This document shows positions 2,455 to 24,651 of a stretch of 56,858 nucleotides of DNA, one piece after another (within the stretch, counting starts at the first letter, position 1; every line of letters starts with the position of its first letter). The position numbers were made by a program, and so were the translations under genes. Under the pieces are notes generated by a model. It saw nothing but the letters and a program-made list of their open reading frames with translations. It was not told the DNA's origin and did not search any database. The stretch lies in assembly GCA_018823885.1 (NCBI GenBank), contig JAHJHG010000005.1:1-56858 (forward strand). The letters run 5' to 3'. The stretch comes from Patescibacteria group bacterium. Lineage in GTDB: Bacteria; Patescibacteriota; Microgenomatia; UBA8517.

Positions 2455-3215
2455 ACCGCTACAAAATACTCTGCTTTAGAAAGATTACCTGGTTTTATCG
2501 GAAAATCACGTGTTTCCAAATTCTCTTGGCTTTTGCGCCCGAATAAACCGCCTAAGCATTTCCAAACCTTTTCTTTAAAAGCTTGGGGAATTATTTTTCT
2601 AATTCTCAAAATATCACTTACAACAAATCTTTCCCTCGCTTTTTGAGAAGCCATGAAGTCTTTCAGGGCAGTTTTTGCTCGCTTGCTTTTTGTTTGACTT
2701 TTAATACCTACTGTTTTGAAATATTTATTCAATAAATGACCTAATTCTTCAGCTGTATATTCCTTTATATGATAAGGGCTTTTTAACTTATCTCCTGTAG
2801 AATGAAAAAACTTATTTGGGGTAGACAATATAAACTTTCCGCCTGGCCTTAGAACCCTATGTACTTCTTTCATAAATTTATGGGTATCTTTTAAGTGCTC
2901 TATTACTTCGAAAGAGCAAGCGGCATCAAATTTACTATCTTCAAATGGTAATGTTGTTGCATTTGCTTTTAGAAATCTCGCTTTCTTTGAATAGTGCTTG
3001 TTTGCGTACTCTATCGCCTCATTATTATTATCTATTGCAGTAACTTCATATTTCTCACCTAAGACTGCACTACCGTACCCTGTACCACAACCAATATCTA
3101 TAACTTTCGCATTTTTTCCAAAGCATCTCTTCGCAAATTCGTAGCGCGCGAGAGATTCCTTAAATTGAAAGTTTGCTGTAACACCAGGAATTACACGTTC
3201 GTTAAAATCCATCAT
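2442..3215 (-). CDS. Class I SAM-dependent methyltransferase (type 11-like)
   Basis: VIDIGCGTGYG motif I, FEVIEH, LRPGG..ILSTPN. Confidence 0.9.
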   Translation of the reverse strand: MMDFNERVIPGVTANFQFKESLARYEFAKRCFGKNAKVIDIGCGTGYGSAVLGEKYEVTAIDNNNEAIEYANKHYSKKARFLKANATTLPFEDSKFDAACSFEVIEHLKDTHKFMKEVHRVLRPGGKFILSTPNKFFHSTGDKLKSPYHIKEYTAEELGHLLNKYFKTVGIKSQTKSKRAKTALKDFMASQKARERFVVSDILRIRKIIPQAFKEKVWKCLGGLFGRKSQENLETRDFPIKPGNLSKAEYFVAVCKK

Positions 3216-4438
3216 TTTATATCAGAAAGAACCTTCCAGGAAAAGTACACCACAAAAGGCAAAGAAATAAGCGAGCCAATAATTGTTGAAATACCCGCAC
3301 CTACTATGCCAAATTTTATTACCAACGGCACTATCGAAACAGCCAAGCCAAGAACACTGATGAATGTAATAAGCGTAACTAATTCCTGTTTCTTAACGGC
3401 TAGAAAAACTGTTAAAGATGGATTAATTATCGCTCTTATAACACCGTATATAGATAAAACCCTAAGAACAGGAACAGCTTCCAACCACTTATCTCCTAAA
3501 ATTATTAGTATTATTTCTCTTGAAAAGAAGAAAATGACCAAACCAAAAGGCACCACTAATACCGAAACAGCCAATATTGTTTTGCAAAATGCATTTTTGA
3601 ATCTTTTACTGTCCTTAGAAATTTTCGTATAGACGGGAAAAGTTACTCGCGCTATAACATCAGCAACTTCAGAAATAGGCAAGCTTGAGATTTTATATGC
3701 AACTTGATAAAGCCCGAGAGAAGATGTTCCCAATATTTTCCCCACAACAGCATCATCGCCCTGACGGAATAAATATTGAAAAATACCCGCTCCCGTCACC
3801 CATTTCCCTCTATTAATAATTCGTTTTATCTTTACCTTCTTGAAACTAAGCTTTGGTATTGGTCTGACATATATATAGGATAACAATACTTCCAAGACTG
3901 CACCCGCGATTAGTCCCCAAACAAGGCTTGTTGCAGATCTTATTGTTAACGCCAAAGCAACCGTCACCCCTGCATCGAACAGAAAAATTGACGATTTTAA
4001 CCAAAACTCTTTTTTAAACTGCAGTTCTTTCTGCAGTTTAACAAGAGATGGATTAATAAAGCCCCGCACAAAAGGCACAACAGCAATGAGATAAAGTAGA
4101 TTCATGGAGTCCGGAGATTTAAAAAAAATTGAAACAGGTTTTGCTGTAAGAATAATAACAAAAGAGATAACTATTCCTCGTATGATTGAAACAACCCAGG
4201 CAGTATCAATATATTCATCAATATTGTCTTTCTCCTGAATTAGAAACACATTTATACCTGTTTCAACCAATATTTCTAAAAATGCTAAAGCAAGAGCGGC
4301 AATTCCAAACAAACCGAATTGAGCCGGAATAAGAATGCGAGCCAATATTGCCGTTTTCACAAAGCCAACAAGCCTTGTAACTCCCCTAAAGGCCCCTACC
4401 CATGTAATACCCTTAACTGTATCTTTTAAATATCCCAC
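3212..4438 (-). CDS. wzx: Polysaccharide flippase (Wzx/WzxC-like, MOP superfamily)
   Basis: About 12 TM segments; LARIL.P..FG and GKILG...LGLYQVAY motifs; lies in a glycosyltransferase cluster. Confidence 0.85.
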   Translation of the reverse strand: MGYLKDTVKGITWVGAFRGVTRLVGFVKTAILARILIPAQFGLFGIAALALAFLEILVETGINVFLIQEKDNIDEYIDTAWVVSIIRGIVISFVIILTAKPVSIFFKSPDSMNLLYLIAVVPFVRGFINPSLVKLQKELQFKKEFWLKSSIFLFDAGVTVALALTIRSATSLVWGLIAGAVLEVLLSYIYVRPIPKLSFKKVKIKRIINRGKWVTGAGIFQYLFRQGDDAVVGKILGTSSLGLYQVAYKISSLPISEVADVIARVTFPVYTKISKDSKRFKNAFCKTILAVSVLVVPFGLVIFFFSREIILIILGDKWLEAVPVLRVLSIYGVIRAIINPSLTVFLAVKKQELVTLITFISVLGLAVSIVPLVIKFGIVGAGISTIIGSLISLPFVVYFSWKVLSDIK

Positions 4439-4453
4439 TATTTGTATTCTAAC

Positions 4454-5407
4454 TCAGTGTTCTTCTCTAGCAAATATCCCTGTCAAAAATCCTGACATTA
4501 CTGCAAAGTCAGATGTAAATTGCAATATAATTCCCCACATACCAATCTTATAATCCCCGAACTCAACATAAACTTTTCTGAAAGACCAGAAAATATATAA
4601 AAATAAACCCAACAGTAGAACAAACCAAAGCAGGGGACTGCTGAAAGCCAAAATTAAGCCAACAAGACCGAATGCGTACCTGACTAAGACAAAAAGTACC
4701 TTAATATTGTGCGACGAAAGCTTTTTGGATGGATGCCACCATATTTTTGATTGCGCATCGCCCTTCGCGTAAAGAAATATTTTATTAAATGCCTTTCTTA
4801 AAGTCCTTGGAATCCCCCACTCCACTTGTGCGTTTTTCACGCGTGCAATGTTTGCTCCACTTTGAACTAACCTGTAATTAAAAACGGTATCTTCTGCAGT
4901 GCCCTTTAATTTCTCTGGGAATCCCCCAACCTCTAGCCAGGTTTCCTTTTTGATAGCCACTGAGCGTGTCGAAGGTAAATAGTTGGTATCAAATTGGGAA
5001 GGCAAAACGCCCAAATAGAATGATAGTGCTTTCTGAAAAGCTGTTTCGCCTGTCATTTTATAAAAACCAGCCACAACATCTACTTCCTTATTTACAAAAG
5101 GTTTTGTAATCCTTCCAAACCAGTGTTTATTTGGCACACAACCTGCGTCTGTTAAAGCCACTATTTCATTTCGTGAAATATCAATTCCCAAATTCCTACC
5201 CTGTGCTCGTGAACATTTTTCAACAAGAAGCTTTATTCTTTTCTCCTTTTTTTGAAAATGTTTTATTATCTCAATTGTTTTATCTTGCGATCCCCCATCA
5301 ACAATTACTATTTCATCAGGTTTTTTCGTTTGTACCAACAAACTTTCAAGAAGATTCGCTATATTCGCCTTTTCATTGAACACTGTAACAACAATAGATA
5401 TCTTCAT
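4454..5407 (-). CDS. Glycosyltransferase family 2 with C-terminal TM helices
   Basis: IVVTVFNE, VDGGSQD, LTDAG, EDT motif. Confidence 0.9.
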   Translation of the reverse strand: MKISIVVTVFNEKANIANLLESLLVQTKKPDEIVIVDGGSQDKTIEIIKHFQKKEKRIKLLVEKCSRAQGRNLGIDISRNEIVALTDAGCVPNKHWFGRITKPFVNKEVDVVAGFYKMTGETAFQKALSFYLGVLPSQFDTNYLPSTRSVAIKKETWLEVGGFPEKLKGTAEDTVFNYRLVQSGANIARVKNAQVEWGIPRTLRKAFNKIFLYAKGDAQSKIWWHPSKKLSSHNIKVLFVLVRYAFGLVGLILAFSSPLLWFVLLLGLFLYIFWSFRKVYVEFGDYKIGMWGIILQFTSDFAVMSGFLTGIFAREEH

Positions 5408-5410
5408 TTT

Positions 5411-6598
5411 TTATAATAATTCATGACCTCTTTTTTGTTTGATAATAATGACAATAACAAACATTATCCATACAATAATAAGCTTGGGTTTGTAGTCAAG
5501 CTGAGGCAAAACCGAAATTGAACTTAACAATGCAACAATGGTAAGTTCTTTAATAATCCTTAACCTTTTCGCTATTATAAACACAAACAACATAAGAGGA
5601 ATCATAACGGGATAAACAAAACGCATGTTCGATACCACAATTTGCATATCAGGCAGGGAGGGCTGAGGAAGAAAAATAATGAAATTAATGACCGCTAATA
5701 CAACCAGGGGTATTAAATCTTTTAGCAACTCTTCTTGTTTCTTTATCTTTGAGTAATATGAAACCAACATTACTATGAGCGGCGCCAAAGACCAAAATAG
5801 ATATTCAGATATAACGGCTTGAATCATCAACCAGGCACCTCCCGGCTCAAGAAACACTTTTACTGAAGTCCAGTCAGTGGCGTGGAAATCTGGATGAGCC
5901 TGCCAACCCAAAAACGCAACAGGATAGATTGGATTTCCTGTTATAATCCAATTCCTTACATACCATGAAAGGCCGAGGATAAAAAAAGGAACAAAAAAAG
6001 CAACAAATCTCCTTACTGTAAACATAGAAAGCACTTTGCGCGAATAAACTACCAAAAGAGCCAACATTAACAGTATGCCGGAATATTTGACTCCGACTAA
6101 TAATCCTAGTGAGAAACCAATTTTCAGAAAATATGAAATACTTCGCTTGGGTTTTTGTAGCAGGGACAAGCTACAAAGAAAAAATACAGCCAACCAAATA
6201 TCTATTGTCTGAGTCAATATTAATCTGAGAACGGTCGGTAACAAAGAGAAGGTTGCAGCAAAAACCAAAGAGGCCATTTTACTGAGACCGAACGTTCTTG
6301 CAGTAAACCTGCAACAAAAGAACAGCAGCACCAAACCCAAAACATTGAAAAGGTTTAAAGGAATATTAAATTTAACAAACAGAGAAAGCATGGTCTCCCC
6401 AACTGCAGGATAATAACCTAATCCCTGTTTTATATAAGATAAATTAGTAAAATCGCCGCGGGAAATACTTTCGGCAATAGGAATATGGTACGTCAAGCTG
6501 TCAACTTCCCCTAACTGAACTGGAGTTGTAGTGAATCCCAAATGTATAAAATACAACAAAACAAAGAAATATAATGCGGTAAATAATTTAGAGATCAT
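5411..6598 (-). CDS. Polytopic membrane protein, probable GT-C fold glycosyltransferase
   Basis: More than 10 TM segments; acidic first loop (EVDSLTYH); WYVRNWIITGNPIYP and RF.YP motifs typical of GT-C-like proteins. Confidence 0.6.
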   Translation of the reverse strand: MISKLFTALYFFVLLYFIHLGFTTTPVQLGEVDSLTYHIPIAESISRGDFTNLSYIKQGLGYYPAVGETMLSLFVKFNIPLNLFNVLGLVLLFFCCRFTARTFGLSKMASLVFAATFSLLPTVLRLILTQTIDIWLAVFFLCSLSLLQKPKRSISYFLKIGFSLGLLVGVKYSGILLMLALLVVYSRKVLSMFTVRRFVAFFVPFFILGLSWYVRNWIITGNPIYPVAFLGWQAHPDFHATDWTSVKVFLEPGGAWLMIQAVISEYLFWSLAPLIVMLVSYYSKIKKQEELLKDLIPLVVLAVINFIIFLPQPSLPDMQIVVSNMRFVYPVMIPLMLFVFIIAKRLRIIKELTIVALLSSISVLPQLDYKPKLIIVWIMFVIVIIIKQKRGHELL

Positions 6599-6653
6599 AA
6601 TTGAGGCAGCTAAGAAGATTATAACTTAAAACCAGGAAGTTTTATAAACAACT

Positions 6654-7352
6654 CTACGACGCCGGAGAAGGGGAGATTTCTGGTGTGGGAGTGGAACTCT
6701 CTGCCGGAGTGGGCACAGGGGATGGCGTTGTGGTGGGAACAGCCTCCACCTCTTCGGGGAAAATTTCTAAATCTGAGGCGTCATTTACAACCAGCGTTCT
6801 TGTGTTCTCATTATACTTACCTGTAGCAAATATTCTCCTGTCGACCAATTTTTTCAAATCGATATTTTCCGGCACTTCCAACGCAATCGCTTCGGATGAA
6901 GTCGTAATTAAATAATACTTTGCGTTAATTTCTGTAAATCTTAGTGTTCCAGTGAAGGCAGTGTTTCGAGTAAGTTCTTGTGTCGTGCTTGGAGACTCTG
7001 TTGGTGTATATTCAAAAAACGGTACGTTGAAAGGCAAAATGAAACGCCCGATACCTAAACTAACACTGACGATTATTAACGAAATAGCTATAGCTGTTAG
7101 CGGACGTACTTTTATACGAAACTCTATCCCCTCATTGCCAATTATCCTTTTCCACCAACTCTTAAGATATGTAATAGGATTTGTAACTTTAATATCTACT
7201 AAAGGAAGTTCTTTTTTGCGAAGATCGGGCTTTATTTTCTTTACAGAAACAACGGGGGTTTTTGAAGCCGTGTTTATATTAACAGTTTTAGACTTTTCAT
7301 TCTCGGTAACCGTTTTCTTATAATTTACTCCACTTCCTGCAGAATCCGCCAT
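6654..7352 (-). CDS. Hypothetical single-pass membrane protein with Pro/Thr/Ser-rich C-terminal tail
   Basis: One TM (LTAIAISLIIVSVSLGIG), beta-rich external domain, tail PTTTPSPVPTPAESSTPTPEISPSPAS; TAAACT -10-like box 10 nt upstream. Confidence 0.75.
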   Translation of the reverse strand: MADSAGSGVNYKKTVTENEKSKTVNINTASKTPVVSVKKIKPDLRKKELPLVDIKVTNPITYLKSWWKRIIGNEGIEFRIKVRPLTAIAISLIIVSVSLGIGRFILPFNVPFFEYTPTESPSTTQELTRNTAFTGTLRFTEINAKYYLITTSSEAIALEVPENIDLKKLVDRRIFATGKYNENTRTLVVNDASDLEIFPEEVEAVPTTTPSPVPTPAESSTPTPEISPSPAS

Positions 7353-7423
7353 AACTATTAAAGTTTAGTATTGATTCTGTTATAACGCAATATTTGCTAG
7401 CTTTAATCGACCAAGCTTCTACG

Positions 7424-7433
7424 TTGGGTGACT
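7424..7433. repeat. Left 10-bp direct repeat TTGGGTGACT (putative att core)
   Basis: Identical to 12536-12545, which is the acceptor-stem 3' end of a tRNA-His-like fragment. Confidence 0.6.
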
Positions 7434-7543
7434 TACCGAACGATGTTAGAACCGCTTTAATAAAGCCTGAAGCTAAGGAAATGGAGTTGCTAGCGAGTTT
7501 ATTGTTGAGTAAGAAGACAAAAGAGATTCCCTTGTATCTTTAG
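7424..7543 (+). pseudogene. Mini-ORF/remnant A (LGDLPNDVRTALIKPEAKEMELLASLLL...), possible C-terminal fragment of a site-specific recombinase
   Basis: 54/84 nt and 13/28 aa identical, ungapped, to 9472-9555, including six synonymous codon differences; begins exactly at the direct repeat. Confidence 0.5.
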
Positions 7544-8064
7544 ATTAGTGCCACGATGGCCAACAAGGCTCGCCCTCTATCAGACATATCCTTAAACGTA
7601 TACTCTACACCTTCTACGTAACATATTTTAGCTGAGTCATAAATCAATAAAGCGTTGTGTTTTTCTTCACTATAGTTTTGAGAAAAATGTGGAAGCGAAC
7701 CACAATCAAACAGATATATTTGCTCTACTCCTGAAGCACTAGAAGCACTCACATATCCCGGCATTGTTTTTAGCTTTGGGCTTGGATTTGTTCTATCCGA
7801 TCCATGAACTGATATTTTTTCCAACCTTTCCTTTCTTTCTGCTGGGTTTTCTTCAAGATGAAAAAATCTAAAACGGAATTTTTCTGGAAATTCTTTAACA
7901 TTCAAATCCAGTCTTTCAAACATTGATTGACTGAACTTTTCATTGAAATCTTCGAGGGACAAGGGGTTGATCAAACTGTGCCTTTTTTTAAACATCTCAG
8001 ACGATATTTCGATATAGGGGATCTTTTTTTTACCTATACGAATTATTTTTTCAGATGATGGCAT
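7540..8064 (-). CDS. Hypothetical protein, possibly ADP-ribosyltransferase-like fold
   Basis: 174 aa ORF 9 nt downstream of the AlbA_2 gene. Pattern FRFFH...LEKISVHG...IYLF...LLIYD...VEY resembles the ART strand order (weak, by eye). Confidence 0.6.
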   Translation of the reverse strand: MPSSEKIIRIGKKKIPYIEISSEMFKKRHSLINPLSLEDFNEKFSQSMFERLDLNVKEFPEKFRFRFFHLEENPAERKERLEKISVHGSDRTNPSPKLKTMPGYVSASSASGVEQIYLFDCGSLPHFSQNYSEEKHNALLIYDSAKICYVEGVEYTFKDMSDRGRALLAIVALI

Positions 8065-8073
8065 TTTATTATA

Positions 8074-9372
8074 TTAACCCCCTTTTTCGATTAACTTATT
8101 TTGCCAATCTTCAAGCATTTTTTCTGAAGGATCATTCCAGTTAAACAGCATGAAGACTTTCTTTATGATTTCTCTGGCAACGGCTTTGTGAGACACTTTT
8201 AACTCAACAGTTTGAATATCTTCGTTAATTTCTGCTGGTTCGTCTTTGCAAATGTAATGGGCACCCAAAATAGTTCCCTGACTTGCTTCTAGTTTTCTGT
8301 CTTTAGCTCCATAAAGCTTAAGTTGCAAATGTAGTCTTTTTACTTTTAAGTTTTTAAGATAAAGTCTTTTTAAAAATAGAGTCATTTCAGTTATAGAATA
8401 TATTCTACTTACAAAATACAGGATACTAAGTCCTTTTTTAGAAAATCCCATCATGTCTTCACCAAGCATTGCCGACCAAACAAATAGTCCACTTTTATAT
8501 AAACGCCATGCTTCACTGTGTGGAACTCTTTCACTCCCCGTAATTGACTGTTTCCCATTGTTAAAATTTGAGAAATTTCCATGAACATCAATGTGGGGGA
8601 AATCCCAACCTCTCAATCTTACCTTGCTTTGCTCAACCATCTTTCCAGCTTCAACAGGGTTGTCTATTAATTGATCATTGTAATCATGTGGGTGAACCAC
8701 AAGCTCCCACCTTCCTATCTCCTCAATATTCTCAAGATTGGCTCGGACAAAACCGAGGGCCTCTTTGATGTCATTGTCGAATTTTTTGTTTTTGTCATCT
8801 GCTTTTTTTATTATCGGAGATCCACTCACAATCCTTTTTATTGTTTCGAAAATTTCTTCACTCTTCTTGGTTATCCCTCTTCCTAAAATTCTTCTCATTT
8901 CATCAACGTTGCTTATGGCTTCACTTGTATTTTTCTTGGTTCTTATATACACAGCGCCTTTTGTAAGTAAAATCTCGTTATCCTTTGAGTGGAGTGTTTT
9001 TTTGCAAATAATTGGTTCTTCAGCAAACTCAGGAATGTCTATCACTACTGTTAGTTTGTTGTTCACTTTCATTTTAACAACATCGCAACTTAAGGGCGGG
9101 TCTGCGTACTCTTGAAGAAGTTGGTTAATTGGGGTCGTGTCAAAAGCATAAAATTCCTTTTCGGTTATTCCTACGTGCTTAAACGCCTTATCGGTCACAC
9201 CTATCACAATTTTTCCACCATCTCTCGTGTTTGCCATGGCCATAATGTCTTTGATAATTTCAATTCTTGGGCTTTTGTTTTGCTTGCTCCAAACAAAACC
9301 TTCTTTAAAGTCCTTATTGATCGTTTCGGTTTTTTCTTCAATTAATGCCTTTATGTCTTCTTTTGTAAGCAT
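8074..9372 (-). CDS. AlbA_2/Schlafen-like domain protein with an uncharacterised C-terminal domain
   Basis: TETINKDFKE, IIKDIMAMANTRDGGKIVIGVTD and VYIR motifs of AlbA_2; C-terminal WELVVHP...VRLRGWDFP domain. Confidence 0.85.
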   Translation of the reverse strand: MLTKEDIKALIEEKTETINKDFKEGFVWSKQNKSPRIEIIKDIMAMANTRDGGKIVIGVTDKAFKHVGITEKEFYAFDTTPINQLLQEYADPPLSCDVVKMKVNNKLTVVIDIPEFAEEPIICKKTLHSKDNEILLTKGAVYIRTKKNTSEAISNVDEMRRILGRGITKKSEEIFETIKRIVSGSPIIKKADDKNKKFDNDIKEALGFVRANLENIEEIGRWELVVHPHDYNDQLIDNPVEAGKMVEQSKVRLRGWDFPHIDVHGNFSNFNNGKQSITGSERVPHSEAWRLYKSGLFVWSAMLGEDMMGFSKKGLSILYFVSRIYSITEMTLFLKRLYLKNLKVKRLHLQLKLYGAKDRKLEASQGTILGAHYICKDEPAEINEDIQTVELKVSHKAVAREIIKKVFMLFNWNDPSEKMLEDWQNKLIEKGG

Positions 9373-9471
9373 GTGCTACCCATATTTTAACAGATAGCCA
9401 CTAAGAAAATTGTGAACGAGTGAAGTTTGTCAAGGACTTTTTTAGAATATCCCGAGAATACGGCCATTTCG

Positions 9472-9606
9472 ATGGGTAGACTACCGGATGCTGTTAGAAC
9501 TCATTTTATGACCTCTGAGGATAAGGAAAGGCTGTTATTGACGAAATTTTTGCTTCTTAATAATGATTTTGGTGGAAATATACACACGCTACAATTTACT
9601 ACATAA
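9472..9606 (+). pseudogene. Mini-ORF/remnant B (MGRLPDAVRTHFMTSEDKERLLLTKFLL..., 44 aa), homologous to 7424-7543
   Basis: Ungapped codon alignment with remnant A; ATG 9472, TAA 9604-9606; lies between the AlbA_2 and RM genes. Confidence 0.5.
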
Positions 9607-9622
9607 AAGTAGGCTCAGAAAT

Positions 9623-12403
9623 TCAGATTATTTCTGTCGTAACCCCCTCCACAATCTTAATTTCTTCAGAATTAAGACCATACATATCATAAACTTCTTC
9701 GTTAATCTTCTCATCTATATCTTCCACTCTTTTTTTAAGCACCTCTCTATTGTCTGTAAGGTCAGAAAGATTATCCAACTGTTTTTCAAGCACAATCACC
9801 TTATTTACTAGATCCACTAATTTCTTCTTTTTTCCAATTTTCACAACGAGACTATTAAGATACTTAGGCAAATATTCGTAAGACTCGCCCATTTTTTTTG
9901 ACTTTGATCGAATATAGAAACCAAAAAGTCTGGAGTTCAGCAAACCTAAAAAGTACTTTATATCAACATCGGATTTAGCAAATAGGACAGTCGTATTATG
10001 TCTTGAACCCACCATTCCTTTGTTGTCATAAATGAATATATTATCTTTTGCCCTTGATCTACAAAACAATTTTCCCTCACCCCAAGGGTATTCGATCATA
10101 GGGCGTGCTAATCCCAAACCAAGCTTTTCGTTTCTTCTTTTGTTTCTTTCTAAAATCATTGTTCTGTTTGTTTTCAAATATTTTTTAAGATTGGGGGTTT
10201 TCGATAGATCACTATGTTTATCAATATGTATCATATACTTATTTGTTTCACTAGAAAGATATTTTCTCTGTATATTGGTCGATCTAATAAATTTTCTTAG
10301 ATATTTTTTTTCCAGATTGAAATTTTCTACAGTTTTCTTATCAATAATATATATCTCGTCTAGAGCCGTTAGGGGAGTATTTTTTATATCAAAATGTTTT
10401 GTAATTGGCTCACCCTCATTTTCGAACTTCGCTATCAATTTTGACGCAGTTGGCTTTTCTAAACTCCAAATATCCATCTGCTTCAATTTCACCTGCTTTA
10501 TATAAAAGGGTTTTGTATAAATATCGTCAAGATAAATTGTTATTATATTTTTTTCTGGTTTTTTGTTCCTCAAGGTTATTATCGCAGTATGAACACTCGC
10601 TCCTTCAAAAACTTGCTTCTTTCTAAAATCAATTATTGAAAGTATTTCCACATTATCTAAAAGATATTCTCTAAGCTTCTTAGCATAAACAGATTCCAAA
10701 AAATATCTTGAGACTATAAAAGACATCACGCCTCCTTGCCTTAGAAGTTTTATGCCTTTTAAAATAAAATAGTAGAGCAGGTCATTTTTCCCTGAATATA
10801 TTTCATTATACTTTTGATGAAAATATTCTTTTAATTCACTACTTTGCTTACCTTTTGCCCAGCCCACATAAGGTGGATTGCCTATAACAATATCAAACCC
10901 CCCCTTATCAAAAACATCGGAAAATTCTCTCTCCCAATTAAAAGGCTTTTGATCTCTCCAATCCTCGCCAAAAATTTTCTTAAGGTCTTTTTCTGAGCCT
11001 GATACAAGTGAGTTTCCCACTTTTACGTTGTCTGTCAGCATTGGCAGCTTATGACCTGGCTCTAGAGCCTTTATAAGCATGTTTAATCGAGCTATCTCCG
11101 TTGCCTGAGGGTCTAAATCTACACCGAAAATGCTGTTTTTTAATATCTTATATTTGGTCGACATCTCTCCATTTTTAGACTCATCTTTATCTTTTTTCTT
11201 TGAGTATTCATTTATAACTGCAAATGCTTTAGTTAAGAATGAGCCACTCCCACAGGCTGGGTCTATGATTTTAATATCCCCAATTCTTTCAGGTTGATCA
11301 GAAAGAATATTTCCAAGCGTGTTTCTAACAATATATTCAACGATATAAGAAGGTGTATAGTATATTCCTTGTTTTTTCCTTTTGCTCTTAGTGCCGTCTA
11401 TGCCTTGCACATATCCTAAATATTGTTCATAAACACTGCCCAATACATCAACATCAATGGCATCAAATCTGTATTTAACACCCCTCTCCTTTTCTCCGTA
11501 AAGCTGTGGAATAATTTTAGAGAAAGGGTCACCTTCTGTATTCAATTCTTCGCAAACATGAGGGCTGAAAAGATTACTATTGTATTTCCCGTCAAATTTT
11601 TTAAAAAGGGGTTTTAATACTTTTATAAAGTTGTTCGATTCTCTACGCTCACTTTCCCACTTTTTAAATATTTGCCACAGCTTTTTCTCCTCAAACTCCC
11701 TATCCTCAACAACTCTTATAAAAATAAGCCTGTCTAATATTCTCTGCACTGATTCATTTATTACCTCTTCGCTTTTATCTGTATTCCATTGCAAAAGATT
11801 GTTGGTTAATTTCTCTCTCCAGTTTAACAAGTCTTGAGCTAACTTTTCGTTAACACTCTCTCTAGTAGATGTTATTCCCCATTTCGAAGCTTGCTTTTGA
11901 AGTTCTTTTTGCTCAAAAGACTGCTTAGAAAGTAACCACAAATTATCAAACTCTTTAAGATACTCCTTATAGGTCAAATTAAGATTTGCTTTTGGATGAT
12001 CTATTTTCCACTCTGAATTGAAAAGCTTAAGACCCTCGAAGTCGCTTAAAACGACCCAAGTTATTCCCTTGTTCCACCCATATTCAATTGCCTGCATTGC
12101 CCATTTTTCTTTATTTAGATCTTCAGGAATGGCTTTCGCCTCAAGAATAAACTGCGTAATATTGTTTAATCTAAAAGAGTAGTCAATTCTTCCTCCAACA
12201 ATTGAAGTCTCTTCCTCAACAACTTCATTGTCAACATGCTCATTGTCTACATCCCATCCCAAAGCTTCAAAAAGAGGCATTATAAACATCCTTCGTGTAT
12301 CTGCCTCGTTTATCGTTTTAAGTCTAGTTTCAGAAACACCTTCATATTTTTTAACAAGCCGTTCAATCTTGTTTCTAGCCTCCTTTTTATAATCTACGCT
12401 CAT
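9623..12403 (-). CDS. Type IIG restriction-modification enzyme (fused endonuclease, N6-adenine methyltransferase and target-recognition domain)
   Basis: N-terminal ADTRRMFIMPLFEALGWD and RIDY...ILEAK (PD-(D/E)xK nuclease); GIYYTP, DPACGSGSFL (motif I), GNPPY (motif IV); TaqI_C-like C-terminus. Confidence 0.92.
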   Translation of the reverse strand: MSVDYKKEARNKIERLVKKYEGVSETRLKTINEADTRRMFIMPLFEALGWDVDNEHVDNEVVEEETSIVGGRIDYSFRLNNITQFILEAKAIPEDLNKEKWAMQAIEYGWNKGITWVVLSDFEGLKLFNSEWKIDHPKANLNLTYKEYLKEFDNLWLLSKQSFEQKELQKQASKWGITSTRESVNEKLAQDLLNWREKLTNNLLQWNTDKSEEVINESVQRILDRLIFIRVVEDREFEEKKLWQIFKKWESERRESNNFIKVLKPLFKKFDGKYNSNLFSPHVCEELNTEGDPFSKIIPQLYGEKERGVKYRFDAIDVDVLGSVYEQYLGYVQGIDGTKSKRKKQGIYYTPSYIVEYIVRNTLGNILSDQPERIGDIKIIDPACGSGSFLTKAFAVINEYSKKKDKDESKNGEMSTKYKILKNSIFGVDLDPQATEIARLNMLIKALEPGHKLPMLTDNVKVGNSLVSGSEKDLKKIFGEDWRDQKPFNWEREFSDVFDKGGFDIVIGNPPYVGWAKGKQSSELKEYFHQKYNEIYSGKNDLLYYFILKGIKLLRQGGVMSFIVSRYFLESVYAKKLREYLLDNVEILSIIDFRKKQVFEGASVHTAIITLRNKKPEKNIITIYLDDIYTKPFYIKQVKLKQMDIWSLEKPTASKLIAKFENEGEPITKHFDIKNTPLTALDEIYIIDKKTVENFNLEKKYLRKFIRSTNIQRKYLSSETNKYMIHIDKHSDLSKTPNLKKYLKTNRTMILERNKRRNEKLGLGLARPMIEYPWGEGKLFCRSRAKDNIFIYDNKGMVGSRHNTTVLFAKSDVDIKYFLGLLNSRLFGFYIRSKSKKMGESYEYLPKYLNSLVVKIGKKKKLVDLVNKVIVLEKQLDNLSDLTDNREVLKKRVEDIDEKINEEVYDMYGLNSEEIKIVEGVTTEII

Positions 12404-12537
12404 CGGCCCAATTTTATCATTATTTTAATTTTTCGGAAAGAAAAATGTAATTCCCTCGGCGTTACCGGAGGATTTCCAAACAGCTGACTGGATAGAAAAA
12501 GACAGATTGAATCACATACTAGGAAATATGAGGTCTT

Positions 12538-12564
12538 GGGTGACTGACGGGACTCGAACCCCGT
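12538..12564 (-). pseudogene. 3' fragment of a tRNA (T-arm plus acceptor 3' strand), His-like
   Basis: Minus strand reads ACGGGGTTCGAGTCCCGTCAGTCACCC: GGTTCGAGTCC T-loop plus CAGTCACC acceptor strand. No D-arm or matching 5' acceptor strand found upstream. Confidence 0.65.
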
Positions 12565-12597
12565 AGCACAACCTATGTTTTCTCTGGGTGACCTTTT

Positions 12598-13245
12598 TTA
12601 TTTATTTGTAATTATAGGTAGGATGTGTTTTCGAATAAATGTATATAAAACGGCAATCATTCCAAACCAAAAAATATAAACAAAGAATGTACTGATCACA
12701 TCCGTACCTACAAACCATGCGTGTGCTGCTATTAAGAAAAATACAAAATAATTTAAAATATGAAATTTACGCCAATTTTCTTTCCACCAAACTTCATTTT
12801 TAACTATTGCCGCCAAGATAGCGAGAGATATAAGCCAAAAGGTAATTCTGCCGAAACTATAATAAAGCTCAATCGGCCTTGAACAGAGAAGACAAAAGTC
12901 AGTAAAGACATAAAAGGGATCGAGTACACCTCTTGTTTTGAAATTATAAATAAGAAATAGAAGAGGGTGTACCAATACCAATACGTAAGCAACAAACCCT
13001 TGAATTAGATGAAATTTAAAAATCCACGCTCCAAATTTTTCTTTCCACTTCTGCATAAATGCCCCGAGAATAATTTGCACAAACAATAAACTAAAAACAA
13101 CTAATCCTAAAATCCTTTGAAAAATATTAATTAAAAGAGGAACATTCTGGGTAATATCAAAAACTTTGACTGACTTTAATACAGCAAAAGGGCCTGACAA
13201 TAAAATAATAAACCATATAATAATAAAAGAAAGTTTTGATTTCAT
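12598..13245 (-). CDS. Ferric reductase-like transmembrane domain protein (MsrQ/Ferric_reduct family, no flavin domain)
   Basis: About 6 TMs with paired His residues (FHLIQG, VHP, FHILNY, AHA) spaced as in heme-b-binding ferric reductase TM domains; W..LH-like motif. Confidence 0.75.
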   Translation of the reverse strand: MKSKLSFIIIWFIILLSGPFAVLKSVKVFDITQNVPLLINIFQRILGLVVFSLLFVQIILGAFMQKWKEKFGAWIFKFHLIQGFVAYVLVLVHPLLFLIYNFKTRGVLDPFYVFTDFCLLCSRPIELYYSFGRITFWLISLAILAAIVKNEVWWKENWRKFHILNYFVFFLIAAHAWFVGTDVISTFFVYIFWFGMIAVLYTFIRKHILPIITNK

Positions 13246-13272
13246 GAGTAATTATTTGAAGTATACCAGAAG

Positions 13273-13354
13273 AAAAAGGGACTTACGGGTGGAGCTTGAG
13301 AGATAATGTTTCAAACTATACGGTGTTATACCGCAAGTCTTCTCAAGCCCCACC
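13273..13354 (-). ncRNA. Structured 3'-UTR element or terminator with two competing helices
   Basis: 14-bp stem (13341-13354 with 13288-13301, one G-U pair) and 8-bp stem (13332-13339 with 13280-13287), followed by a U-tract at 13273-13277. Confidence 0.55.
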
Positions 13355-13364
13355 TTTGTCGCAC

Positions 13365-13652
13365 CTACCCCGAGAGAGAAGCCAAAACCGCTGTTGAAGA
13401 TGCTATCATCATTGCTATTACGGCAAGTAGCAAGAGGCTATTGGTACGCTTTCTAGCGCTGTCATCTGAATTAGATAACATTGCAAAAACGTACATAATT
13501 AGTGAAATCACAAAAGAAAGTGAAAACACAACATCTAAAACGAAAGCCCAAGTCGAAACGTCAGGATCTGGTAATTTCCTGTACAAATGGATCGACGCAG
13601 TGGCAATCACTATTAGTGCAATCACAGCTAATAATATGCGTTTCTTGTCCAC
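13365..13652 (-). CDS. Small hypothetical membrane protein (3 TM)
   Basis: 95 aa, three hydrophobic segments, GTG start preceded by perfect Shine-Dalgarno AAGGAGGT. Confidence 0.75.
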   Translation of the reverse strand: MDKKRILLAVIALIVIATASIHLYRKLPDPDVSTWAFVLDVVFSLSFVISLIMYVFAMLSNSDDSARKRTNSLLLLAVIAMMIASSTAVLASLSG

Positions 13653-13674
13653 GCTTTTACCTCCTTATAGGTAG

Positions 13675-14211
13675 TTATGCAGGTCTTGCTCTCACGTAGA
13701 GTGCAAGTATAGAATTCGAGCGCTTGTTGATTAATCTTTCTCGTTTCGTTAGATGATTCAAGGAGCGCCTAAGCTCGGCGAGTTCTTTGTCAAATTCGCC
13801 GACTAATTTTTCATACTCCTTCTTGAGTTTGTCATACTCCGCCCCAATCTCTTCAAAAGCCAAGGATGTTGTTAATCTCTCCTCAGGCTTTTGGCCTTTC
13901 ATGATAAAAGCAAGCTGCATCTGTGCATCAACTTTAAGCTTGAAAAGTTGAGTTATTCTTCTTATTTCTTGGTTTTTCTGATCGGCTTGCTCCATCCTCA
14001 ATTCAAGCGCCGTCATTTCCATACCTATCTTGCGTAATGTTGTGGCACATCGATGTAAATACTTCTTCGCTTTTATGAAACGAAGAAAAAATGGGCCATA
14101 CTTCTTCCATATTCTCTTTGACATCACATTCTTACTGAAAGCAGCCCATATGTGGAAAACAAGCACAAATACTAATACCACAGCCAAGTAAGACAGCAGT
14201 TGCGTGAACAT
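13675..14211 (-). CDS. Hypothetical membrane-anchored coiled-coil protein
   Basis: N-terminal TM, heptad-rich body, SD AAAGGAG, consensus promoter upstream. Confidence 0.75.
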   Translation of the reverse strand: MFTQLLSYLAVVLVFVLVFHIWAAFSKNVMSKRIWKKYGPFFLRFIKAKKYLHRCATTLRKIGMEMTALELRMEQADQKNQEIRRITQLFKLKVDAQMQLAFIMKGQKPEERLTTSLAFEEIGAEYDKLKKEYEKLVGEFDKELAELRRSLNHLTKRERLINKRSNSILALYVRARPA

Positions 14212-14270
14212 TTTCTTTTCTCCTTTAAGGTGCGAATTTTTGGAATTAGTCTCTTTATCAGACTTGCAGA

Positions 14271-14299
14271 ATTATATAATTCTAGAAGACAAAAGTCAA
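14271..14299 (-). promoter_or_regulatory. Sigma70-type promoter TTGACT-N17-TATAAT with a 16-bp palindrome over the -10 box
   Basis: -35 at 14294-14299, -10 at 14271-14276; perfect palindrome AGAATTATATAATTCT at 14268-14283. Confidence 0.75.
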
Positions 14300-14316
14300 A
14301 CTATGGGTTATGAATG

Positions 14317-14390
14317 TGGTCGTGACAGGACTCGAACCTGTGGCCTCCGCAATGTGAATGCGGCGCTCTAGCCAACTGAGCTACACGACC
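14317..14390 (-). tRNA. tRNA-Val (anticodon CAC), CCA not encoded
   Basis: GGTCGTGTAGCTCAGTTGGCTAGAGCGCCGCATTCACATTGCGGAGGCCACAGGTTCGAGTCCTGTCACGACCA folds into a full cloverleaf; anticodon arm CCGCA-TTCACAT-TGCGG. Confidence 0.97.
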
Positions 14391-14445
14391 AAATAGTTAT
14401 TTCTTAACCCTGAATTTTATCATCTTCAGCGTTTCTTTAACAGGA

Positions 14446-14475
14446 TTGACATCCTAGTCTCTCTTTCGCTAAAGT
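14446..14475 (+). promoter_or_regulatory. Putative promoter of the GuaB/GuaC-like gene (TTGACA-N18-TAAAGT)
   Basis: Perfect -35 at 14446-14451 and near-consensus -10 at 14470-14475. Confidence 0.55.
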
Positions 14476-14506
14476 TAAATGTAATGATTCATATCATTAC
14501 GTAAGT

Positions 14507-15574
14507 ATGAATCAGAGAATACCTTTAGGTTTAAGCTACGACGACGTTTTACTTGTTCCTCAGCATTCTCATATTAACAGCCGCTCCGAAGTAAGCATCG
14601 ATACTCAAATTACGCCAAGAGTAAAGATAAAGCTCCCCCTGATAAGCATCAATATGACTGACGTAACAGGTCCCGAAATGGCCATTGCTCTCGGAAAATT
14701 AGGTGCCTTAGGTTTTTTGCATCGATTTACATCTCCTGAAAAACAAGCCGACATGGTTTTAAAAGTAAAAAAGCAAAAAGTATTAGTTGGTGCTGCAGTA
14801 GGTGTTAGAAATGGTCATTTGGCACGCTCCGAAAAATTAGTAAATGCAGGAGTGGATATTTTGACCATTGATGTTGCCCATGGAGCAATGCAAAAAACAA
14901 TAGACACAACAAAAGAGCTTAAGAGAAAATTTGGAGATAAAGTAGATATTGTCTCTGGAGTTGTTGCAACCTATGAGGGAGCAGTAGATCTCTTCAAGGC
15001 CGGTGCTGATTCCGTAAGAGTCGGCGTGGGACCAGGAACAATCTGTACGACAAGAATAACAACCGGCGTTGGCGTACCCCAAATCACGGCCGTTATGGAA
15101 GCAGCTAGGGCTGCCAGAAAATATAAAAAAACCATTCTCTGTGACGGAGGTACAAAAAACTCTGGAGATATTGTTAAGGGGTTAGCCGCCGGTGCGTCTG
15201 CTGCAGTTATTGGAAGTCAATTTGCCGGCACCGATGAAGCTCCCGGAAGAATCCTTGTGCGGTGTAATAAGAAATATAAGGCCTACAATGCCTCAACATC
15301 ACTAGTAGAAAAAAGAAATCATGTCAAAACTCTCAAAAATACTAGTGAAAATTATTTAAGCCATATTGAAGGCGTTAAGGCCACTGTTCCATATAAAGGC
15401 GCTGTGTCAAGGGTTATATCAATAATGGAAGCGAACATTAAATCAGGTTTTAGCTATTGCGGAGCAAAAGATCTAGAAACGCTGTGGAAAAATGCTCAAT
15501 TTATCCGCATAAGCCAACTCGGGGTAAGAGAAAGTGGCGCGCATGATGTTATAGTTGAAAAAGAGAAAATTTAA
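14507..15574 (+). CDS. guaB: IMP dehydrogenase / GMP reductase family protein, CBS-less
   Basis: LSYDDVLLVP, IDVAHG, GVGPGTICTTR (catalytic Cys), DGG, EGV..VPYKG. IMPDH versus GMP reductase is unresolved. Confidence 0.8.
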   Translation: MNQRIPLGLSYDDVLLVPQHSHINSRSEVSIDTQITPRVKIKLPLISINMTDVTGPEMAIALGKLGALGFLHRFTSPEKQADMVLKVKKQKVLVGAAVGVRNGHLARSEKLVNAGVDILTIDVAHGAMQKTIDTTKELKRKFGDKVDIVSGVVATYEGAVDLFKAGADSVRVGVGPGTICTTRITTGVGVPQITAVMEAARAARKYKKTILCDGGTKNSGDIVKGLAAGASAAVIGSQFAGTDEAPGRILVRCNKKYKAYNASTSLVEKRNHVKTLKNTSENYLSHIEGVKATVPYKGAVSRVISIMEANIKSGFSYCGAKDLETLWKNAQFIRISQLGVRESGAHDVIVEKEKI

Positions 15575-18783: not shown

Positions 18784-21684
18784 TTAAGAAGCTTTTGTAA
18801 CACTAAATTTACCCTCTTTTAAATCCGTTGCTAACGTTTTATTTTTAACTTTTTGTACAACTTCTTTACTCTTCGGTATCCAGGTGTTGGCAACAACAAT
18901 TTCTTGAGTAAGGTTCATGCCCAATTTCTTCCTTTCTCCTTGAATTTTTCGAATAAGTTCTCTTGCTTTCGCTTCTTCTTCTAACTCTTTGGTAACTTTT
19001 GTGTCTAGTTTAACTTTCAATTCCTCTCCCTCTGTTTTAGCCCAACTTATATTCTTTACATTTACTTCATCCTTCACGAGAGCCTCAAGCTCTGAAGATA
19101 ATTCGGGTATAGAAACCGTTAAAGAGTTTAGCGGTTGTCTTACAGGAATTTCCGCTTTCTTCCTTTCGGAATGAGCTTTTTCAGCAAGCTCCCTTGCCAC
19201 AATCATGTTGTTCATTAATTCCTTATCTATATTTTTATCTGAATCTGGCCAATCCTCAACATGCACTGATTCCTTCTTTGTTAAATTCATATATATAAAA
19301 TCTGCCAAGTAAGGAGTTAATGGAGCGATTAGTTTGGTTAATGCAACCAATACGAAATGTGTTGTTTGGTAAAACGCATCTTTATCTGTTTTTTCTCTTG
19401 CTGCAGGCCCAACTCTGTCTCTAGACCGTCTTATATACCAGTTTGAAAAATCATCTACAAATTCCTCTATCAAACCACTTGTTCGATAAGCATTATATTC
19501 ATCCAAATATTTTGTTACTCCATTTATTAACTCGTTTAATCGGGACAATATCCATCTATCAAGAACATTTAGATCTTTATTTGAGGTAGAATCACTTGGT
19601 GTCCAACCGTCTATATTTGCGTAAGTTACAAAAAAATTGTATACATTCCAAATCTTTAAATGAAATCTTCTTCTAGTTTCATCAGCAATCTTATGACCAA
19701 ACAATAAATTCTCCGATGGGTTCTGTCTCGCATACAACCAGCGCATAACGTCGACTCCAATTTTATCGGCACCCTCATTAAACTCAATCATGTTCCCTGA
19801 GCTTTTGTGCATTGATTGACCCTTTTCGTCCAAAAGTGTGGCAAAACCAAGAATTGTTTTAGTAGGTTCTTTATTCTCTAATACCGTACTCATGGCAATT
19901 AACGAATAAAACCAGTTCTTAAACTGTCCAGGGAAACTTTCTGTAATAAAGTCTGCCGGAAACCATTTTGCCCACTCTTTTTTATCCTGCCAGTATAAAG
20001 GCGTTTCTTTGTTATCTGCACTTATTGTCGAAAAAGAAACAATGCCTGCATCAAGCCATGGATTACCAACATCAGGAATACGAGTAGCTGTTTCGCCACA
20101 TTTCTCACATTTAATTTTCACTTCATCAATCCAAGGGCGGTGTGGAGTATTGCCTTCAAACTTCTCCCACCCTTCAATTGCCTTTTTCTTAAGCTCTTCT
20201 TTGCTACCAATCACATCAAAATGGCCACACTTATCACACTCCCAAATCGGAATTGCCAATCCCCAATAACGCTTCTTGGAAATTAACCAATCATGCATAT
20301 TGCTTAGCCAATCTAGTTCTCTCTTGAGGCCAAAAGAAGGAATCCATTGGATTTTCTTAGCAGCGCCCTTCATATTTTCTCTTACGGGGTCTATTTTTAT
20401 ATACCATTCATCAACAACTCTCCAAACAAGTTCTGTCTTACAACGCCAACAAGCTGGATATCTGTGTTTATATTTTTCTTTTTTAAACAAAAAAGACTGT
20501 TCTTCTAGATAATTAATAATTAATTCTGGATCATCCTTGGCATTTTTACCCGCAAACTCCCCTAGTTCGTCAAGATAATTAGCCTCCTCATCAATTACTT
20601 CTATTACTGGAAGACCCTCCTTTTTGCCAAGAGCAAAATCCTCAGACCCAGCCCCCGTTGCTATGTGTACCAATCCCGTCCCTTCATTTTCACCAACAGT
20701 TAATATACGATCGGCAGTAGCGACAACACGATGTTTCTCACCCGAAAGGGCCTTTTTAATCCTTGGTAAATTATCAAAGGCGGACTTGTAAGTTAAACCA
20801 ATCAGTTTTTCGCCCTTGACCTTTTCTAATATTTTCAAGCCTAACAGGCCGGCAGTTTTTTCAGACAAATAATATTTTTTGTCTGAATCTTGAGAACTCG
20901 CTAAAACATAAGTAAGTTTTGGATCAACCGCCACGGCCACGTTAGCTGGCAATGTCCAAGGAGTCGTTGTCCAAATAAGAAGATGTTCGTTTTCCTTTTG
21001 ATCTATTGGGTAAGCCACATAAAGCGCATCGTGCGTAAGGTCTTTGTAGTCTTCCGTTAACATCTCATGTTGAGAAATTGCTGTTCCGCAGCGAGGACAC
21101 CAAGGGACGGAATCCCTGCCTTTGTAAATAAGACCTTCGTCATGGCATTTTTTGAGAAAATGCCAAATCATGTAGTTATTGTTATCTGAAAGTGTGTAAT
21201 AGGAGTTATCCCAATCAACAATATATCCAAGTCTTTTAGACTGTTCTGTCTGTATATCAGCGTATTTGTATACGCGTTTTTTGCAAAGGTCAACAAACTT
21301 GGCCAGACTCCCTTTCATATCTCCCGGTATTAAATTCTCTATATCTTTTTTGCTTTTAAGACCTAGTTCTTTTTCTACTTCAACTTCCACCCATAAACCT
21401 TGACAATCAAAGCCATTTTGAAAACGCTGCTTAAAGCCCTGCATATTTTTGTATCTCTGCCAAATATCCTTGTAGGTTCTACCCCACGCATGGTGAACAC
21501 CCATGGGATTATTGGCGGTTATAGGGCCATCTAGGAACGAAAAGTATTTTTTTGAATTTTTGTTTTTCTGAAGATACTTCTTGATAATTCCTTTTTCATA
21601 CCATTCATCAAGTAATTCCCGCTCCATCACAGAAAAATCTGCTTTAATATTTACTTCATCAAAAAAAGGCCTGTCTTTAGCCAT
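18784..21684 (-). CDS. ileS: Isoleucine--tRNA ligase, type 2 (eukaryote-like)
   Basis: FLDGPITAN..GVHH, GFDCQGL, WTTTPWTLPAN, DWLISKKRYWG, SMHKS (KMSKS variant), NWYIRRSRDR. Confidence 0.97.
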   Translation of the reverse strand: MAKDRPFFDEVNIKADFSVMERELLDEWYEKGIIKKYLQKNKNSKKYFSFLDGPITANNPMGVHHAWGRTYKDIWQRYKNMQGFKQRFQNGFDCQGLWVEVEVEKELGLKSKKDIENLIPGDMKGSLAKFVDLCKKRVYKYADIQTEQSKRLGYIVDWDNSYYTLSDNNNYMIWHFLKKCHDEGLIYKGRDSVPWCPRCGTAISQHEMLTEDYKDLTHDALYVAYPIDQKENEHLLIWTTTPWTLPANVAVAVDPKLTYVLASSQDSDKKYYLSEKTAGLLGLKILEKVKGEKLIGLTYKSAFDNLPRIKKALSGEKHRVVATADRILTVGENEGTGLVHIATGAGSEDFALGKKEGLPVIEVIDEEANYLDELGEFAGKNAKDDPELIINYLEEQSFLFKKEKYKHRYPACWRCKTELVWRVVDEWYIKIDPVRENMKGAAKKIQWIPSFGLKRELDWLSNMHDWLISKKRYWGLAIPIWECDKCGHFDVIGSKEELKKKAIEGWEKFEGNTPHRPWIDEVKIKCEKCGETATRIPDVGNPWLDAGIVSFSTISADNKETPLYWQDKKEWAKWFPADFITESFPGQFKNWFYSLIAMSTVLENKEPTKTILGFATLLDEKGQSMHKSSGNMIEFNEGADKIGVDVMRWLYARQNPSENLLFGHKIADETRRRFHLKIWNVYNFFVTYANIDGWTPSDSTSNKDLNVLDRWILSRLNELINGVTKYLDEYNAYRTSGLIEEFVDDFSNWYIRRSRDRVGPAAREKTDKDAFYQTTHFVLVALTKLIAPLTPYLADFIYMNLTKKESVHVEDWPDSDKNIDKELMNNMIVARELAEKAHSERKKAEIPVRQPLNSLTVSIPELSSELEALVKDEVNVKNISWAKTEGEELKVKLDTKVTKELEEEAKARELIRKIQGERKKLGMNLTQEIVVANTWIPKSKEVVQKVKNKTLATDLKEGKFSVTKAS

Positions 21685-21744
21685 CTTGAAAGTATTTTAC
21701 AATAAATCCCTAGTAGTGTGCAGAAGGAGTTAGAATTGGAGAGA

Positions 21745-22113: not shown

Positions 22114-22130
22114 AAATAATCACCCCCGAT

Positions 22131-23306: not shown

Positions 23307-23358
23307 TTGTATGCGTGATTTTACTAGGAGCAGAGAAAAATTACAAGTTATCTATTTT

Positions 23359-24636: not shown

Positions 24637-24651
24637 ATTATAAAAAGGGGC

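Follow-up and report, generated by a model that had tools for sequence, protein, structure and literature searches.

A candidate tRNA-His-type gene-cassette array with defence-related cargo in a Woesebacteria genome

Insertion of cargo by large serine recombinases at the 3' end of a single conserved gene is known from SCCmec and its Ccr enzymes, where tandem or composite elements and recombinase-less pseudo-elements also occur. Serine recombinases are likewise known to build up tandem insertions at a small-RNA gene, and the arrangement that appears closest to the one described here is that of the ssrA island arrays of Dehalococcoides. In these islands a 20-bp target repeat stands beside a motif that has no alignment to the target, a serine recombinase of ∼540 amino acids lies on the reverse strand adjoining attL, and some islands lack an integration module and have been read as cis-mobilizable or accreted (McMurdie et al. 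2011, PMC3146451); SCCmec Ccr is named as a homologue in the same paper. A minority of the tycheposons of Prochlorococcus also use large serine recombinases (Hackl et al., bioRxiv 10.1101/2020.12.28.424599). The Patescibacteria have tiny genomes with few recognisable mobile elements, so that the acquisition and exchange of accessory genes in this phylum are poorly understood, and among the papers searched nothing relevant on cassette arrays in Patescibacteria was found. Here we describe a segment at positions 7424–12577 of a 56.9-kb stretch of DNA (56,858 nucleotides, termed the window), which is the whole of contig C5 of a Woesebacteria (Patescibacteria) genome of 756 kb, nine contigs and 38% G+C, whose host population is known from groundwater metagenomes. 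The segment is probably an ectopic two-cassette array belonging to a tRNA-His-type gene-cassette system confined to a single Woesebacteria family. Genomes are labelled G (the present one is G000), contigs of relatives L, and contigs within a genome C; C1, C6 and C8 are from the present genome.

All parts of the array lie on the minus strand. Read in that direction, the gene of a ferric-reductase-like membrane protein (12598–13245) is followed by the platform, a tRNA-His-like 3' fragment of 42 nt that forms the array head (12577–12536), and then by a first cassette with the gene of a type IIG restriction-modification (RM) enzyme of 926 amino acids (9623–12403), internal junction repeat B (9473–9536; nhmmer E = 6e-13), a second cassette encoding a Schlafen/AlbA_2-domain protein of 432 amino acids (8074–9372) and an orphan protein of 174 amino acids (7540–8064), junction repeat A at the array tail (7425–7488; nhmmer E = 2e-13) and the flank. 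The head (12577–12536) and the two junctions (9536–9473 and 7488–7425) share a tRNA-His-like end terminated by ...(A/C)CCC, and the boundaries are accordingly marked, as in islands at tRNA genes (tDNA), by co-oriented direct repeats from the 3' end of the target. The preliminary description of this DNA had seen the two ends as copies of a 10-mer, TTGGGTGACT, that bound one islet. Both copies (7424–7433 and 12536–12545) are confirmed as the only ones in the window, where 0.06 are expected and where at least two copies arose in none of 100 shuffles; the rest of the genome holds one extra copy, at C8 31362. The right copy is indeed the acceptor end of a tRNA-His fragment, with 25 of 28 nt identical to the genome's own tRNA-His (C1, c25501–25575), and the left copy is the terminal core of junction A, which is 34–65 nt long; the two 10-mers are the head core and the tail-junction core. 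A shared core from the tRNA-His 3' end does therefore mark both ends of accessory DNA, as had been proposed. The simple 10-bp duplication around a single islet, by contrast, did not survive closer comparison, given the length of the repeat, the division of the segment by junction B and the presence of eight more copies on C8. Even the 10-bp core is conserved in just eight of its ten bases (AGTCACCC), the extra AA not being conserved across the family.

When 38 copies are combined in a junction profile for nhmmer, the genome yields exactly ten matches (E ≤ 5e-12 in every case), all in one orientation, namely junctions A and B and eight sites between 29.5 and 39.3 kb on C8. In the tRNA orientation junction A reads ...GCGGTTCTAACATCGTTCGGTAAGTCACCC|AACGTAGAAG and junction B reads ...AAAATGAGTTCTAACAGCATCCGGTAGTCTACCC|ATCGAAATGGCCGTATTCTCGGGAT, with a class I trailer; B belongs to a subfamily that includes C8 35899 and G001 C3 7780, while the 27 nt at 7426–7452 are identical to three C8 sites and similar to five more. 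The repeat is better conserved across genomes than coding DNA, matching at 33 of 33 nt in G001, from the same genus, and at 31 of 33 nt in another genus, when coding DNA of G000 and G001 is just 74–80% identical. Twelve of the 139 genomes of the order contain it (11 of 91 genera), all of them in one Woesebacteria family. A reversed control pattern gave no matches in the same genome set, and none was found in ∼370 genomes of other families of the class.

The repeat, in tRNA orientation, is GAGTTCTAACATCGT(TCGGTA)AGTCACCC, also written ...ATGAGTTCTAACATCGT(TCGGTA)AGTCACCC, to be compared with GAGTTCGAATCTCGT-CAGTCACCC in the tRNA-His of G046 (full stretch CGAGTTCGAATCTCGTCAGTCACCC). The junction is thus a diverged T loop, T stem and acceptor of tRNA-His with a 6-nt insert, TCGGTA; this insert and a CTAAC motif are features of the repeat family that are missing from the tRNA. 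Conservation across the 38 copies ends exactly after CACCC, which corresponds to tRNA positions 70–74, and the bases that follow fall into a few trailer classes, for example ..GCCGTATTATTGGGAT. A stop of this kind, with discrete trailers after it, is what would be seen if elements recombined at the extreme 3' end of tRNA-His, each leaving an arm of its own behind the insert. When five junctions were folded as single-stranded DNA, z-scores ranged from −2.9 to +1.3 and the folds had no structure in common, attC-like hairpins included. A third, degenerate junction seen by eye at 12463–12495 was dropped, being detected by neither the profile nor MAFFT.

Two rival explanations concern the repeats themselves. 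In the first, the 10-mer match is accidental, and what lies between the membrane-protein gene and the glycan cluster is no more than an ordinary variable spot; the spot is indeed variable in many relatives, with unrelated genes and no junction repeats, and by our own estimate a 10-mer common to a 45-nt fragment and some intergenic DNA no more than a few kb away is not very rare if any position is allowed. Given that the junction repeat is linked to tRNA-His family-wide, and that one and the same trailer class follows both a tRNA-like head and ordinary junctions, we attach almost no probability to coincidence. The second makes the repeats small genes or regulators on the plus strand, (M)GDLPNDVRTHFI..., antisense to the 3' ends of their neighbours, with an incidental likeness to tRNA-His. 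Synonymous-looking changes (AGA/CGA, TTA/CTA, CCG/CCA) and two peptide-like subfamilies downstream, SEDKE..LL and NSTDYQILK, speak for coding, yet the entropy lacks three-base periodicity (0.64/0.45/0.58 by codon position), fewer than half of the 38 copies have a start codon, in-frame stops interrupt the 24 codons read in seven copies, and the frame runs for just 26–50 amino acids from motif to stop in the ten G000 copies. On neither strand does the motif open or close a long open reading frame (ORF), and a coding role would leave unexplained why the repeats are always downstream of tRNA-His and co-oriented with it, which makes this explanation very improbable. A reading of the junction as a 'ghost gene end' (antisense ...EMSSNIVR plus stop) was likewise rejected, as no long ORF in the genome ends in this way.

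The association with tRNA-His is direct in other members of the family. G046, G075, G122, G123, G126 and G127 have the repeats immediately 3' of a full tRNA-His gene and in its orientation, and these are six of the six other genomes that have tRNA-His on the fetched stretch. An intact target tRNA is thus present at the proximal end of the arrays of those six genomes, where the window has the 42-nt fragment. The units between junctions measure 0.06–2.6 kb, and their genes differ wholly between arrays of different genomes, with the 174-residue protein gene as the sole exception. At the lower end of the range, two junction repeats lie merely 58 nt apart at 8883–9007 of L114 (G046 C67), an 'empty' cassette that is expected if neighbouring junctions recombine and delete cassettes.

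Within the present genome the same repeat family forms a larger, eight-junction array at C8 29540–39245. Its cassettes encode secreted and surface proteins (PKD/beta-propeller, GH10 and serpin) as well as unknowns, which means that the cargo is not restricted to defence genes, and the genes lie in both orientations. A second repeat, at C8 33630–33746, matches three sites in the corresponding array of G001. The C8 contig ends 5.4 kb beyond the head of the array, and no paralogy was found between the genes of the C8 array and those of the segment at 7424–12577.

The head of the array in the window covers the variable region, T arm and acceptor of tRNA-His and ends ...CCCGTCAGTCACCC, with AAGACC beyond; 20 nt, including a 6-nt trailer past the tRNA, are identical to the tRNA-His junction of G001. 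ARAGORN and Rfam call no tRNA at the right 10-mer copy, the only tRNA that they find in the window being tRNA-Val(cac) at 14316–14390. The fragment has an 8-nt T loop and an insertion of ∼5 nt, and is therefore not a working tRNA. Homologous tRNA-His-like fragments are found behind the orthologous membrane-protein gene (proteins 64–75% identical) in L153, L154 and L155/L156. The L153 fragment ends ...GTTAGTCACCC and continues with ATAATATGCCGTATTATTGGGAT, a class I trailer of the kind seen after ordinary junctions, and then with a gene unrelated to any here. Homologous fragments with variable cargo in three other lineages argue that the head is a conserved secondary platform and not a random scar. 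The fragment is thus no displaced copy close to a live tRNA-His, but a pseudo-tRNA platform behind a membrane-protein gene that recurs in the same place in three other lineages. Folding of the homologues as a conserved structured RNA gave no common fold (z-scores 0 to −1.4).

A second CACCC core, GGTCACCCAGAG, lies at 12585–12596 on the minus strand, directly 3' of the stop codon of the membrane-protein gene. It has counterparts in L154 (GGTCATTCAGAA) and L157 (GGCCACCCAGAT) and none in the sister contig L151, and could represent either a piece of the ancestral platform or a pseudo-attB. Three other suggestions concerning the platform were discarded. The fragment is unrelated, on comparison, to the neighbouring tRNA-Val; a 12-nt tRNA-His-like match at C1 22026 lies inside an ORF of 871 amino acids and was treated as chance; and an island to the right of 12577, which the classical tDNA arrangement with a partial fragment at the distal end would call for, was rejected because the membrane-protein and tRNA-Val genes are syntenic core genes across the order.

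The head fragment could also be taken as the remains of a once-complete second tRNA-His gene, into which a single integrative element inserted with duplication of a 10-bp core, the integrase and the 5' half of the tRNA being lost later. The tRNA fragment and the left repeat share AGTCACCCAA, related lineages have a tRNA-His-like piece at the same locus, and with a working tRNA-His elsewhere a second copy would be free to decay. We nevertheless consider a single element distinctly unlikely, as the internal junction at 9473–9536 divides the segment, the left repeat is a 34–65-nt member of a family with features of its own (the 6-nt insert and CTAAC), and no homologue of the fragment is a complete tRNA in any lineage examined.

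Comparison with relatives shows that the segment at 7424–12577 is accessory. The sister contigs L151 and L152, 88.5% identical to the window over 12605–14182 and 80% over 3164–6631, lack 6632–12604 and have no tRNA fragment; in its place are 5.3 kb of other genes, which include those of a 1377-residue C39-peptidase/Ig-like surface protein and a glycosyltransferase. The flanking genes adjoin each other in G015, and relatives in general carry unrelated genes or nothing between the membrane-protein gene and the glycan cluster. G001 proved uninformative as an empty-site test, its contig starting 265 bp before tRNA-Val. Eight public runs contain the sequence, and eleven contigs from several assemblies and samples are 99.98–100% identical across 5000–15000, so that the array appears to be fixed in this population. 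L151 and L152 come from the same two metagenome assemblies and represent a related second population, which shares the groundwater samples with the main one. Run X2 has variant contigs (roughly 4–5% different) over 12748–13800, at a depth of up to ∼40 compared with 95–109 for the main type.

The cargo of the array consists of accessory genes, most of them putatively anti-phage, in agreement with the preliminary description of the enclosed genes as defence-type or unknown. The RM enzyme matches the Pfam families Eco57I (3e-42), N6_Mtase, MmeI_Mtase and TaqI_C and the PADLOC profile PDLC03604 / REase_MTase_IIG (8e-120, profile positions 5–1003 of 1011), and contains D..EAK (nuclease), DPACGSGSF (S-adenosylmethionine-binding) and NPPY motifs. 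It is predicted on this basis to be a full-length, single-chain type IIG enzyme in which an N-terminal PD-(D/E)XK nuclease is combined with a gamma-class N6-adenine methyltransferase and the target-recognition domain is C-terminal. The Schlafen protein has an N-terminal AlbA_2 (Schlafen-core) domain, with a match to PF04326 (SLFN_AlbA_2) of 9.5e-15 over residues 19–150, and a weak PADLOC match to the candidate system PDC-S50 (7e-11), and a sequence search of the PDB found no relative; its homologues, 45–62% identical, are located on other metagenome contigs with differing neighbours. A defence function is inferred from these domain matches. The 174-residue protein has no match in Pfam, NCBIfam or PADLOC and just two homologues (80% and 68% identity) among 5.8 billion proteins. 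On L160, which carries its only distant homologue with context, a junction copy follows the gene. One homologue lies in a neighbourhood of MazE, Fic and AAA-ATPase genes, a hint of a defence or toxin role. The RM, Schlafen and 174-residue protein genes were not seen travelling together elsewhere among the homologue contexts.

Related cargo was also encountered at tRNA genes of other Patescibacteria. On L040 (2316–4646), from a marine metagenome-assembled genome of the phylum, a 43%-identical RM homologue begins 360 nt after tRNA-Gln, and L071 (10001–16504) encodes a Schlafen homologue (49% identical) at a distance of 3.5 kb from a serine recombinase gene abutting tRNA-Glu(ctc). Islands with RM or Schlafen cargo at tRNA ends seem to be common in the phylum.

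Candidate enzymes are found at the real tRNA-His. In G122 this gene is followed by a large serine recombinase of 543 amino acids with Resolvase, Recombinase and Zn-ribbon domains, a helix-turn-helix protein and type III RM genes, with a junction 9.3 kb downstream; the next conserved gene past this junction is the orthologue (58.6%) of the gene that flanks the C8 array tail. Large serine recombinase ORFs run over the 3' end of the real tRNA-His both here and in G001, and it is at this base that G000 and G001 cease to be colinear. The own ORF (C1 23987–25564, 525 amino acids) runs into the tRNA in antisense and belongs to an apparent element at C1 ∼19400–25575, which also holds the 871-residue ORF, with a Walker A motif, a 262-residue ORF and small ORFs; only the recombinase domain of this element was compared with the family library. 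Its distal end was looked for and not found. Matches to PF00589 in the genome are confined to C1 92.6 kb and C6 83.8 kb, neither of them near an array.

We propose that site-specific recombination brings in cassettes at the CACCC core, where tRNA-His or its mimic has its extreme 3' end, that each arrival would leave an element-borne arm, the junction, behind the cassette, and that repeated events would build a tandem array by accretion. The enzymes would most likely be large serine recombinases such as those found against tRNA-His in G122, G001 and the present genome, which would act in trans or would since have been lost from the cassettes.

Site-specific enzymes would not be needed if the junctions were portable homology arms and the cassettes came in by DNA uptake and RecA-type homologous recombination, with no dedicated recombinase. 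Such exchange would fit the lack of a recombinase near most arrays, the near-identity of 34–65 nt that is kept across genera, and the complete turnover of cassettes within a genus while the flanks are 74–80% identical. It is nonetheless unlikely, in our judgement, because the sharp CACCC end and the discrete trailer classes resemble a defined crossover rather than variable end points, because the serine recombinase elements of G122, G001 and G000 use exactly the CACCC site of tRNA-His, and because 34–65 nt of homology is short for efficient exchange by RecA.

A number of observations count against the array and its proposed mechanism. The model does not account for the presence of a tRNA-His 3' half behind a membrane-protein gene, and the large arrays of G000, G001 and G008 are not on the same contig stretch as tRNA-His. 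No tyrosine or serine recombinase (PF00589, PF00239) is encoded in the window, as had been stated in the preliminary description, or on C8. The suggestion that the genome be searched for a recombinase that targets tRNA-His was borne out in that a large serine recombinase lies against the real tRNA-His; this protein, however, is just 24% identical to the G001/G122 type, and the profile detects no junction repeat on C1. With up to ∼60 nt the conserved arm exceeds a typical serine-integrase half site, so that the enzyme class is uncertain. As for the empty site that was to be looked for in relatives, the segment is absent from L151; the right breakpoint fits, but the left one is at 6631, 0.8 kb past the tail junction, instead of 7424, and since the sister also carries other genes in this place there is no clean empty site. 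The eleven near-identical contigs gave no sign of present-day mobility: the assembled contigs (as opposed to reads) of four public runs yielded just cross-matches of the junction repeat from other organisms and no excision joint, none of the Logan contigs of the eight runs joins 12545 to 7424, and no excision product, circular junction or empty-site allele was seen in assembled contigs.

With these points taken into account, an ectopic two-cassette array remains the probable interpretation of 7424–12577. Beyond it, we raise tentatively a wider possibility, which we hold to be rather doubtful: that the family runs an integron-like platform with the recombinase supplied in trans, in which cassettes of one or two genes with a tRNA-His mimic of ∼35–60 nt would be moved in and out, by large serine recombinases on separate elements, at the CACCC of tRNA-His and of dedicated pseudo-tRNA-His pads maintained elsewhere in the chromosome, for example behind the present membrane-protein gene. 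If this were true, ultra-small genomes would share a fast-turnover pool of defence and surface-protein genes.

The flanks are composed, as first described, of glycan and housekeeping genes, a glycan cluster on the left and membrane-protein, tRNA-Val, IMPDH-family, signal peptidase and ParB genes on the right. The membrane-protein gene, with 61 homologues, is syntenic with tRNA-Val(cac) across the family and the order. Just beyond the tail junction, the 232-residue protein of unknown function (6654–7352, minus strand) is counted as flank; its homologues adjoin glycan clusters in G017 and other genomes, and the gene is also missing from the sister strain. Between tRNA-Val(cac) and the membrane-protein gene, which in several relatives are less than 35 bp apart, the window has ∼1.07 kb (13246–14315) with two ORFs of 122 (plus strand) and 178 (minus strand) amino acids. 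Several independent assemblies break within this interval, and in run X2 it is represented by variant contigs that differ by roughly 4–5% and have lower depth. Possibly this interval is a further small insertion next to the 3' end of a tRNA. On C6, a second large serine recombinase (127812–129305) directly adjoins tRNA-Ser(gct) at its 3' end. Immediately past this tRNA, a stretch of 21 nt (127857–127877) recurs in inverted form at 129442–129462, and the recombinase gene is thereby bracketed by inverted repeats (127776–129462).

At this locus RM and Schlafen-type genes belong to arrays in which a mimic of a tRNA end recurs as the junction; it is conserved even between genera with proteins of just ∼50% identity, whereas every genome has completely different cassettes. 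It provides a concrete site, the CACCC core, and candidate enzymes, the tRNA-His-adjacent serine recombinases, and the junction is a simple sequence tag with which accessory and candidate defence genes could be harvested from the family's metagenomes. It is unusual for a pseudo-tRNA landing pad to lie apart from the real tRNA gene; if functional, the pad would be a possible integration site for genetic tools.

Against the systems described so far, what is new is a miniature, family-wide cassette array at tRNA-His in Patescibacteria, whose junction is a conserved mimic of a tRNA, together with a landing pad formed by a pseudo-tRNA off the real gene, and defence cargo. The arrays resemble the ssrA islands of Dehalococcoides in that tandem units follow a single small-RNA gene, with direct repeats of its 3' end as their boundaries, and in that a conserved motif beside the repeat does not align with the target gene, as an element-borne arm. 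They differ in that the target is tRNA-His and not the transfer-messenger RNA (tmRNA), the crossover is at the extreme 3' end instead of the T loop, the units are much smaller (0.06–2.6 kb, against whole islands), most arrays have no integration module, there is a second, ectopic array on a pseudo-tRNA platform, and the hosts are Patescibacteria. With the tycheposons they share streamlined genomes, cargo at tRNA genes, a layout in which newer arrivals push older ones inward, and scattered partial tRNAs and remnants. Tycheposons, however, mostly carry tyrosine recombinases and replication modules, whereas the junction here is a 34–65-nt tRNA mimic conserved across genera, and not a plain copy of the host tRNA, and the units hold one or two genes. 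As in classical tDNA islands (Islander/TIGER, PMC4383910), a tRNA 3' end is the target, a 3' fragment marks the ends and the cargo is accessory; in contrast to them, the window has neither an intact tDNA nor an integrase, the fragment is proximal and not distal, and the array has multiple junctions. Integrons are similar in their small, mostly promoterless and unrelated cassettes, each followed by a site-like repeat in one orientation, and in their huge pool and turnover, but here no IntI-type tyrosine recombinase is found at the arrays, the anchor is a tRNA end and not attI, the junctions have no common hairpin or imperfect palindrome, and the cassette genes on C8 lie in both orientations. 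From SCCmec the arrays differ in host, target gene and scale, and the comparison with the Ccr systems is one of arrangement.

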